Below are positions 17,395-18,123 of a DNA stretch of 64,000 nt, piece after piece. The translations under genes were made by a program, and so were the position numbers. Position 1 is the stretch's first letter. Each line of letters starts with the position of its first letter. The notes under the pieces are model-generated. The model saw only the letters and a list, made by a program, of their open reading frames with translations, had not been told where the DNA came from and made no database searches. Source of the DNA: Escherichia coli (GTDB taxonomy: Bacteria > Pseudomonadota > Gammaproteobacteria > Enterobacterales > Enterobacteriaceae); the NCBI RefSeq assembly GCF_030013205.1, contig NZ_CP122648.1; one strand, written 5' to 3'.

Positions 17395-18123
17395 ATGGAA
17401 GTTTTCTGGGTAGTTGTTGGTGTGGTTGCGGTGATTATTTACGTTATCAACCAGAACAAGACTAAGATCTCTGATCGTACGGTCGTTAATCATAACAAAA
17501 CGATAAAGACTGAAGATGGGGAGATAACGATTAATCGTACACAGGTGATAGAACACACCTCCACTCAGTTTCAAAAAACGGGAGATAATGCGCCTAATAT
17601 TTCCGTACCTCCTGCTTATGATAGCGCGGTAATCCAGACATATTATAAACAGCAGGAGTTAGCAAAAGAGAGGCAACTGATTCAGCCAAAGCCGTTTACA
17701 GCTGAGCTTCCACCCGGAGTGTCAACGCGTCCGGCATATCATGGAAGATTCCCTGGTGATGACATATCGTCTCAGTCATCTAAAAAAGCACCTCAGGCAG
17801 TATCAGAGCCAGCAAGAATACCTTCTGTATCGCCGCCAAAAGAAGAATCAGCTAACAGAGTTTCAAGTGGTAGCAAGCAGTGCTTGCGATGCAGAATAAA
17901 CCTTCCATATGAAAAATTCAGGAAATCGTCAAAAAATCCAGATGGATTGACTAAGTGGTGTGCAAGGTGTCTCGATGGCCCAAAGAATACACGCCATATG
18001 AAGTGGTGCCCAATTTGTAATGTCCGCAGAAAACGAACTAGCTTTTACCCTAATAATCAAAATGCGGACGGCTTAATGGCATGGTGCAAAACGTGCTGGG
18101 ACGAGCACAAAGCGAAACGATAG
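17395..18123 (+). CDS. Membrane-anchored protein with two tandem Cys4 zinc-ribbon-like repeats; function unknown
   Basis: N-terminal TM helix (VFWVVVGVVAVIIYVI), C-terminus with CLRCR...DGLTKWCARC and CPICN...DGLMAWCKTCW. Confidence 0.5.
   Translation: MEVFWVVVGVVAVIIYVINQNKTKISDRTVVNHNKTIKTEDGEITINRTQVIEHTSTQFQKTGDNAPNISVPPAYDSAVIQTYYKQQELAKERQLIQPKPFTAELPPGVSTRPAYHGRFPGDDISSQSSKKAPQAVSEPARIPSVSPPKEESANRVSSGSKQCLRCRINLPYEKFRKSSKNPDGLTKWCARCLDGPKNTRHMKWCPICNVRRKRTSFYPNNQNADGLMAWCKTCWDEHKAKR

Follow-up and report, generated by a model that had tools for sequence, protein, structure and literature searches.

A 64,000-nt stretch of Escherichia coli DNA (RefSeq assembly GCF_030013205.1, contig NZ_CP122648.1; this whole stretch is called the window below) holds, within a prophage, an open reading frame (ORF) at positions 17395-18123. 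Its 242-amino-acid product is predicted, with good support, to cross the inner membrane once and to expose almost nothing to the periplasm. By its signals and its conservation the ORF is a real prophage gene, and the principle conserved in its family is predicted to be a pair of tandem zinc fingers tethered to the inner membrane. We tentatively favor, at rather less than an even chance, a superinfection-exclusion-like role for the protein on the cytoplasmic side of that membrane. The gene is delimited by the following features.

17395-18123, plus strand: coding sequence, 242 amino acids, ATG start, stop codon at 18121-18123; member of PHROG 6762.
17384-17388, plus strand: Shine-Dalgarno sequence GAGGA, 6 nt 5' of the ATG, read from the sequence.
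18122-18139, plus strand: intrinsic-terminator-like hairpin AGGCCGCTAGAGCGGCCT with a T-run, found by a scan directly 3' of the stop codon.

The 242-residue product that a preliminary description of this DNA had placed at 17395-18123 is confirmed by the ATG, the Shine-Dalgarno sequence, and the terminator-like hairpin. This hairpin separates the ORF from a convergent gene at 18145-18420. Having its own putative promoter and terminator, the gene is best described as an autonomous accessory cassette (a "moron"); it carries a promoter/operator region and a terminator of its own, and it is present in some and absent from other phages that are otherwise syntenic. A terminator upstream of the orthologue is also seen in L009 and in L073-L079, which are prophages from IMG/VR viral contigs whose hosts were not checked.

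The gene is under purifying selection, with the strongest figures in the finger domain. Across 38 distinct E. coli-type alleles from 54 copies, the ratio of nonsynonymous to synonymous substitution rates (dN/dS) was 0.26 for the whole gene, falling to 0.06 in the finger domain and rising to 0.71 in the linker, and the 729-nt ORF was intact in 54/54 copies examined. At least 80% of the locus was found in 128 of 5426 complete E. coli genomes, always on the chromosome and always annotated as "hypothetical protein." In an alignment of 41 full-length homologues, with identities down to about 21%, the invariant residues were eight Cys, K161, W188, and D225.

The protein matched the profile of PHROG 6762 over its full length (residues 1-242 to positions 1-242 of 242, E 1.7e-149), a family that is annotated as unknown function and whose RefSeq members are all "hypothetical protein." A word-indexed search returned 33 clusters, every named one of them "hypothetical protein," from Escherichia, Superficieibacter, Enterobacter, Citrobacter, Salmonella, Serratia, Providencia, Pectobacterium, and Buttiauxella. 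An exhaustive profile search yielded 1595 proteins at E <= 1e-3, a count that includes proteins matched through the finger unit and nuclease fusions; several dozen among the matches listed are full-length representatives with the same architecture, and full-length relatives extend to more distant metagenomic contigs.

Scans of the 242-amino-acid protein against Pfam, NCBIfam, and PADLOC gave nothing significant, and PADLOC-DB v2 gave 0 families at E <= 0.1 for this protein and five neighboring proteins. An N-terminal match to the "Sie-like" (superinfection exclusion) phrog_8545 (E 0.89) and faint matches to the Pfam families YonG_N and FtsH_ext were set aside as noise. A literature search for the RefSeq accession WP_001525322 found nothing, and no description of an architecture of transmembrane (TM) helix, linker, and tandem fingers was found in the searchable literature. 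The preliminary description had not recognized the architecture, which was fair, since PHROG 6762, of unknown function, is the sole family match; the profile and structure searches that it had proposed led to no assignment to a family with a known function.

The product can be divided into a TM helix, a juxtamembrane hairpin, a variable linker, two Cys4 units, and a basic C-terminal domain, five parts in all. Their positions are as follows.

17401-17463, plus strand: TM anchor, residues 3-23; AlphaFold2 (AF2) helix with a predicted local distance difference test score (pLDDT) of about 90; hydrophobic core VFWVVVGVVAVIIYVI.
17479-17550, plus strand: juxtamembrane beta-hairpin, residues 29-52; conserved, with T39, G42, and E43 among the conserved residues.
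17575-17868, plus strand: Pro/Ser/Gln/Ala-rich linker, residues 61-158; variable, 45% P+S+Q+A, predicted to be disordered.
17869-17994, plus strand: zinc finger unit 1, residues 159-200, with C163, C166, C189, and C192.
17995-18120, plus strand: zinc finger unit 2, residues 201-242, with C205, C208, C231, and C234 and a basic RRKRTSFY patch.

The single N-terminal TM helix and the Pro/Ser-rich linker were both proposed in the preliminary description, and the AF2 model and the residue composition, respectively, bear them out. The same is true of the two repeats of C-x2-C ... DGL-x2-WC-x2-C. Repeat 1 reads C163-x2-C166 ... D183-G-L-T-K-W-C189-x2-C192 and repeat 2 reads C205-x2-C208 ... D225-G-L-M-A-W-C231-x2-C234; they align without gaps at a score of 71, compared with 23 +/- 5 for shuffled sequences, and are homologous to one another.

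The TM helix is conserved across the family and has basic residues solely on its C-terminal side, with Lys or Arg following the helix in all members. In this protein only M-E precedes the helix, and K22, K24, and R28 lie after it. Because of this distribution, the predicted topology is N-out/C-in with a cytoplasmic finger domain, and a cytoplasmic location is also supported because Cys4 zinc sites are expected in that compartment. Periplasmic fingers were judged unlikely on the same grounds, that is, the basic residues after the helix, the M-E before it, and the eight Cys in Cys4 sites.

AF2 confidence for the hairpin at residues 29-52 is low (pLDDT about 50), in contrast to its high sequence conservation. 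The linker is well supported as a flexible tether of about 100 residues between the hairpin and the fingers. In some subfamilies (P0092, P0095, and P0106) it is replaced by a coiled coil while the TM helix and the tandem fingers are kept, and a few family variants have no TM helix. The finger domain carries a net charge of +14 and has an isoelectric point of 9.9.

When compared with PHROG profiles, the repeats matched zinc-ribbon segments at the N termini of "endonuclease VII," HNH, "Lar-like," and primase families at E values from 2e-11 to 3e-3. Unit 1 matched the zinc ribbon of the "endonuclease VII" family phrog_1035 (E 2e-11), and unit 2 matched phrog_2633 and phrog_5558 (E about 1e-9). 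The pattern K-x-C-x2-C ... F ... DGL-x3-C-x2-C is shared with the N termini of the phage HNH/Endonuclease VII proteins of PHROGs 1035, 2633, and 2255 (E 2e-5 to 2e-11), and the zinc-finger/beta-beta-alpha-Me cores of Hpy99I and PacI may resemble the fingers as well. A sample of 36 matches from outside the family included arrays with up to 10 copies of K-x-C-x2-C-x3-LP-x3-F-...-DGL-x3-CK-x-C, and in some of the 36 the finger unit was fused to HNH, Endonuclease_7, helicase, or HEAT domains.

The top Protein Data Bank (PDB) match of the predicted full-length model in Foldseek was the tandem zinc finger of Schizosaccharomyces pombe Stc1 (2LUY; E 3.4e-3, probability 0.90). Sequence searches of the PDB with a single domain and with a domain profile gave a best E value of 0.4. 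The Pfam Stc1 family (PF12898) aligned weakly to both repeats, at E 0.2 and 0.92, below significance; across 41 family members it was matched by 0/41 at E <= 0.001 and by 13/41 at E <= 0.1. Stc1 likewise has two consecutive Cys4 fingers, but it is eukaryotic, soluble, and without a TM segment, and its sequence similarity to the prophage protein is below Pfam significance.

Pfam HNH and Endonuclease_7 matched neither the protein nor the family, and the prophage protein differs from these enzymes in lacking a nuclease domain and the catalytic His/Asn and in carrying its fingers on a membrane anchor. A nuclease function was rejected because neither His nor Asn is invariant in the 41 members, so that catalytic residues are lacking. 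A paper on zinc-ribbon HNH proteins deals with other ribbon types (PMC3592412).

Modeled in this way, the fingers appear to resemble the tandem zinc finger of Stc1 and the zinc-finger/beta-beta-alpha cores of HNH nucleases, minus the catalytic residues. Nucleic-acid binding is their most likely activity, as judged by the charge of the domain, its fusion partners, and its structural neighbors, with protein binding, as reported for Stc1, as the alternative. The Stc1 fingers are reported to bind Ago1.

A second ribbon occurs in the same prophage. A 66-amino-acid early ORF at 703-900 (plus strand; phrog_1081) contains a C-x-H-x-H ... C-x2-C ribbon and weakly matches the N-terminal region of phrog_1035, as do the fingers of the protein encoded at 17395-18123; it may be a soluble single-finger relative within the same phage.

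The surroundings of the gene across its family bear on its function. Podovirus prophages carry the gene with the last gene for an ejection or internal-virion protein on one side and the antirepressor (immI)/tailspike region on the other. The contigs of P0051 and P0095 are too short to inform on context, and in all contexts that could be judged there is a repressor or antirepressor gene within about 1-2 kb, except for two, L011, in which the gene occupies an accessory-gene slot among siphovirus tail genes, and L102, in which it has Fic and lysis neighbors. These repressor and antirepressor neighbors are of the Bro-N, KilA-N/ANT, pRha-like, P22-type Ant, gp19-like, mnt, and cI kinds. Elsewhere, the neighbors include toxin-type accessory genes, namely HicAB in L006, Fic in L102, and a YafO toxin in TL-2011b.

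Regulatory RNAs accompany several of these modules. An isrK and C4 pair precedes the antirepressor genes in L003, L006, L013, L075, L093, and L099, sar is present in L015, and L094 and L096 carry an sRNA-Xcc1 leader beside pRha-like or Ant genes. A link of the C4 and isrK RNAs specifically to the gene was considered but is not supported: these RNAs belong to the ant leader, and the gene is also found beside sar, sRNA-Xcc1, cI, and mnt modules.

In L015, which has a P22-type immI region, the gene follows mnt on the same strand at a distance of 12 nt and is convergent with an ejection-protein gene, which is the position of hkcC-sieA on the P22 map. In two distant members the gene starts 20 and 39 bp after a cI gene that encodes a helix-turn-helix (HTH) and S24 peptidase protein, with a Shine-Dalgarno sequence and no terminator between them; these two members should be made in the lysogen. 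A place immediately after cI is also that of lambda rexAB and of lactococcal sie genes.

In the window, the upstream region of the gene contains a candidate operator and a putative promoter, and copies of the operator recur in the prophage.

17359-17375, no strand assigned: perfect 17-bp operator palindrome ATTACCTTTAAGGTAAT, core TTACC-N5-GGTAA, with the putative -10 inside it.
17338-17343, plus strand: putative -35 element TTGATC, placed by conservation of the layout.
17361-17366, plus strand: putative -10 element TACCTT, within the left half of the palindrome.
223-237, 2572-2586, 2634-2648, 16226-16240, 17267-17281, 17360-17374, and 18479-18493, no strand assigned: exact operator copies from a motif scan.
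271-285, from 608, and from 21335, no strand assigned: operator copies with one mismatch, from the same scan.
17267-17281, no strand assigned: the operator copy at the antirepressor promoters, its center 93 bp from the center of the operator of the gene.

The gene was described at first as having its own operator-like site at 17360-17374 in its promoter region. The palindrome is there (TTACCTTTAAGGTAA, the core of 17359-17375), but it is not private to the gene, being one of 7 exact copies of TTACC-N5-GGTAA in the window, all of them within the prophage part. When one mismatch was allowed there were 15 matches, compared with 1.2 expected. The sites at 223-237 and 271-285 lie between an HTH repressor gene (minus strand, start at 167) and a cro-like gene (322-552). 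Other copies precede the units at 2652 and at about 16222 (minus strand), the ant promoters (17267), and the gene at 17395-18123 (17360), and the copy at 18479-18493 is in the intergenic region between the gp19-like and tail-fiber genes. Each accessory or anti-immunity unit has a copy in front of it, as do the cro-like gene and the replication and nin-like units.

TTACC-N5-GGTAA is most likely a dispersed operator of the main repressor of this prophage, a candidate assignment made because the copies are confined to the prophage and include those in the intergenic region between the repressor and cro-like genes. Dispersed operator use of this kind is reminiscent of the C1 operators of P1. The palindrome at 17359-17375 is nearly invariant in 53 E. 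coli-type contigs, and TTACC-N5-GGTAA is present at equivalent places in Serratia and Pectobacterium prophages. In front of a Providencia orthologue, this position is taken by another palindrome, TTAACC-N5-GGTTAA, as we would expect if each cassette matches the repressor of its own phage.

The putative promoter of the gene reads TTGATC-N17-TACCTT, and a TTGAxx-N16/17-TACCTT layout is found before the gene in E. coli, Serratia, Pectobacterium, and L073-L079. In the gene-linked operators, TT always follows TTACC, completing a T-A-x-x-x-T -10 hexamer. Because the operator overlaps this putative core promoter, the gene is predicted to be off or low in a stable lysogen of this phage and on when the repressor is absent or inactivated. 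Expression would come early after infection, or after SOS induction of the neighboring small antirepressor-like gene. Control of the gene by LexA itself was rejected, as its upstream region (17045-17394) contains no LexA box.

Two further structures were seen near these promoters. Between the divergent promoters, at 17305-17326, is a hairpin with an 8-bp stem (AATCAACCGTATTTGGTTGATT) that scored as terminator-like on the minus strand and could insulate the ant leader from antisense read-through. L073-L079 share a conserved palindrome, TGTGACATGTCACA, some 60-75 nt before the gene, after a terminator and just before the -35 element.

Since the family sits in cI and mnt operons and also under a repressor operator, a function useful both in lysogeny and in early lysis fits best, and exclusion or defense would fit because such functions are known from prophage genes and from early lytic genes. 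Lambda rex is a prophage exclusion gene, and exclusion genes of the lytic phase include imm and sp of T4 and llp of T5. P22 sieA is a superinfection exclusion gene expressed from the prophage, and mutations that escape SieA map to the ejection proteins gp16 and gp20 (PMC10883804). Action at the inner face of the membrane therefore has a precedent, in that SieA works on ejection proteins and has a conserved motif for which a cytoplasmic location is predicted (PMC10883804). According to references cited in PMC8546580, P1, which has the same C4-type immI, has the exclusion gene sim in its immunity region.

As we picture it, the protein would be a superinfection-exclusion-like or defense-like factor whose site of action is the inner membrane, on its cytoplasmic side. 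Its tethered basic fingers would bind either the end of the phage DNA as it enters or the ejection-protein conduit at its cytoplasmic ends, and thereby interfere with DNA delivery by a second phage. It would be a functional analogue of P22 SieA or P1 Sim while being homologous to neither.

The protein can be compared with P22 SieA. Both are inner-membrane proteins (by prediction, for the 242-amino-acid protein), and both are encoded between ejection-protein genes and the immI/tailspike region; this SieA-type position is found in the family, with the gene of L015 directly downstream of mnt. In contrast, SieA has three TM segments and no zinc fingers, and the 242-amino-acid protein has one predicted TM segment. 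The SieA motif FxRYPxEAxxFNK is not in the 242-amino-acid sequence, sequence similarity to SieA was not detectable, and no Sie family was among the significant PHROG matches. In addition, SieA is expressed from the prophage (PMC10883804), whereas a repressor operator lies over the putative promoter of the gene in the window.

Several points weigh against an exclusion function. PADLOC gave no match, and the protein has no similarity to SieA, Sim, Imm, or Cor. The predicted repression in the lysogen is atypical for a prophage exclusion gene, and the promoter on which this prediction turns is below the threshold of a consensus scan and is deduced from conservation alone. The argument from position is guilt by association, as immI and cI surroundings generally attract accessory genes, and zinc fingers of this kind can bind proteins rather than nucleic acids.

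A further proposal, which we regard as less likely than not, is that the family forms a new class of exclusion or defense proteins in which a membrane-tethered, catalytically dead HNH-/Stc1-like finger pair captures the entering DNA or the tip of the ejection channel. Such a module would be wired into lysogenic operons (cI, mnt) or placed under a repressor operator for early lytic expression. If exclusion were the function, the family would represent a mechanistically distinct type, with zinc fingers tethered on the cytoplasmic side, beside the multi-pass SieA type, and it would open a way to study the final step in the delivery of podovirus DNA. PHROG 6762 reaches widely among Enterobacterales prophages, yet none of its members has a function, a structure, or a name. 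For the present, its members are best filed among the accessory membrane proteins of prophage immunity regions, outside the SieA, Stc1, and HNH families.

Among other explanations, it is unlikely, to a lesser degree than for those that follow, that the protein is a membrane-sequestration regulator of the lysis-lysogeny or anti-immunity circuit, its tethered fingers holding a protein at the membrane. The sequestered protein could come from the phage, as its repressor or one of its antirepressors, or from the host, for instance LexA or a protease. The proximity of repressor and antirepressor genes outside L011 and L102 would suit such a role, as would the isrK/C4, sar, and sRNA-Xcc1 regulatory RNAs of the nearby modules and the reportedly protein-binding nature of Stc1, the closest solved tandem finger. 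On the other hand, the circuit works without the gene in phiV10, ZX5, and others of this phage type, the antirepressor families beside the gene are unrelated to one another, so that a specific partner is not obvious, and the charge of +14 is more typical of nucleic-acid binding.

It is improbable that the product, upon derepression, acts through fingers that target host nucleic acid or protein, whether as a toxic or abortive-infection effector or by modulating host physiology (division or envelope). The accessory-type cassette with its own putative promoter and terminator would agree with this, as would the toxin-type neighbors in L006, L102, and TL-2011b. A division inhibitor, icd, is reported to be carried in the P1 immI operon (PMC11897509) and would count in the same direction. 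The protein has, however, no similarity to a known toxin, Abi protein, or PADLOC model, and no enzymatic motif, with no invariant His, Asn, or acidic catalytic residues.

Little probability is also given to the proposal that the protein anchors DNA or RNA of its own phage to the inner membrane for replication or packaging, in the manner of phi29 p16.7. The two would share a design of N-terminal TM anchor, spacer, and basic cytoplasmic domain that possibly binds nucleic acid, as well as early expression, which in this phage is predicted to be repressor-controlled. A coiled coil follows the TM segment in p16.7, and one replaces the linker in P0092, P0095, and P0106. The p16.7 protein, which recruits phi29 DNA to the membrane, belongs to a protein-primed replication system (PMC4974454), whereas the prophage family is also found in lysogenic operons; the two binding domains have unrelated folds, and the phages and their hosts differ. 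The proposal is weakened because distant members are apparently cotranscribed with cI or mnt, which is unexpected for an organizer of replication, and because close relatives without the gene replicate normally. The gene is also kept intact in a defective prophage that has no head and packaging genes.

Finally, next to nothing speaks for a chance ORF or a decaying remnant, a reading that could draw on the missing terminase, portal, and capsid genes of the window prophage and on the bare misc_feature annotation in TL-2011b and is effectively refuted by the conservation data given above (full-length homologues with invariant Cys in many Enterobacterales and beyond, the dN/dS values, the intact copies, and the presence in 128/5426 E. 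coli genomes).

The window prophage is classed as phiV10/epsilon15-like (Uetakevirus-type). Within this phage type, EC.W1-9 carries the gene, phiV10, ZX5, and others lack it, and in TL-2011b its region is annotated as misc_feature only; by this comparison it is an optional cassette in the slot between the antirepressor gene and the gp19-like and tail-fiber genes. E. coli strain K_EC180 has an identical copy of the locus in a prophage beside guaA, and guaA is the attB site that has been reported for phages of this group (PMC9782041). Uetakevirus regulation is the subject of the vB_EcoP_ZX5 paper, which describes neither operators nor the gene. The copy in the window is defective: it has no terminase, portal, or major capsid genes (2652-7400), and the ORF at 5795-6388 is a truncated tail-protein gene that matches only the C-terminal third of its family.

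The gene is flanked on both sides by antirepressor-type genes with the following features.

16307-17044, minus strand: Bro-N antirepressor (Ant), the divergent upstream neighbor; phrog_130, E 1.9e-51.
17048-17243, minus strand: leader of the antirepressor operon, from Rfam matches.
17191-17243, minus strand: a1b1 targets; Rfam E 5.7e-8, below the gathering score.
17154-17230, minus strand: isrK; Rfam E 1.7e-15.
17048-17135, minus strand: C4 antisense RNA; Rfam E 4.6e-15.
18145-18420, minus strand: small convergent gene, epsilon15 gp19-like, 85/91 amino acids; matches phrog_450 and the C terminus of phrog_1760 ("anti-repressor").
18424-18439, no strand assigned: canonical or near-perfect LexA box CTGTATATTTATACAG over the promoter of the gene at 18145-18420.

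The ant operon, with its a1b1/isrK/C4 leader and a predicted phage-repressor operator, is a P1/P7-type immI unit. Its leader (17048-17243) is on the minus strand, and the gene is indeed transcribed divergently from it, as the preliminary description had stated. That description had also put the gene next to an SOS-controlled module; this holds for the convergent gene at 18145-18420 with its LexA box, and it does not hold for the divergent ant operon, which is no LexA-box unit. The product of the convergent gene resembles the C-terminal part of Ant proteins, and it is likely to be an SOS-induced small antirepressor because a LexA box lies upstream and because of this resemblance.

The layout of the locus would thus scatter one predicted repressor operator before every accessory and anti-immunity unit and combine it with a LexA-controlled small antirepressor-like gene and a large antirepressor controlled by isrK and C4 RNA. 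No description of such a regulatory layout for Uetakevirus-type phages was found in the searchable literature.

Between the last virion protein gene and ant, at 14272-16240, are three further accessory genes to which no function is assigned and which have no PADLOC match. They encode a 186-amino-acid protein with a signal-peptide-like N terminus (phrog_11983), a 288-amino-acid protein with TM segments at its N terminus (15124-15990, minus strand; phrog_3630), and a 69-amino-acid ORF product. The minus-strand pair in this region is preceded by the operator copy at 16226. Just past the lysis end of the prophage, an IS1 transposase gene at 24422-25119 interrupts the genes, as placed by the K_EC180 annotation shifted by 2751 nt.

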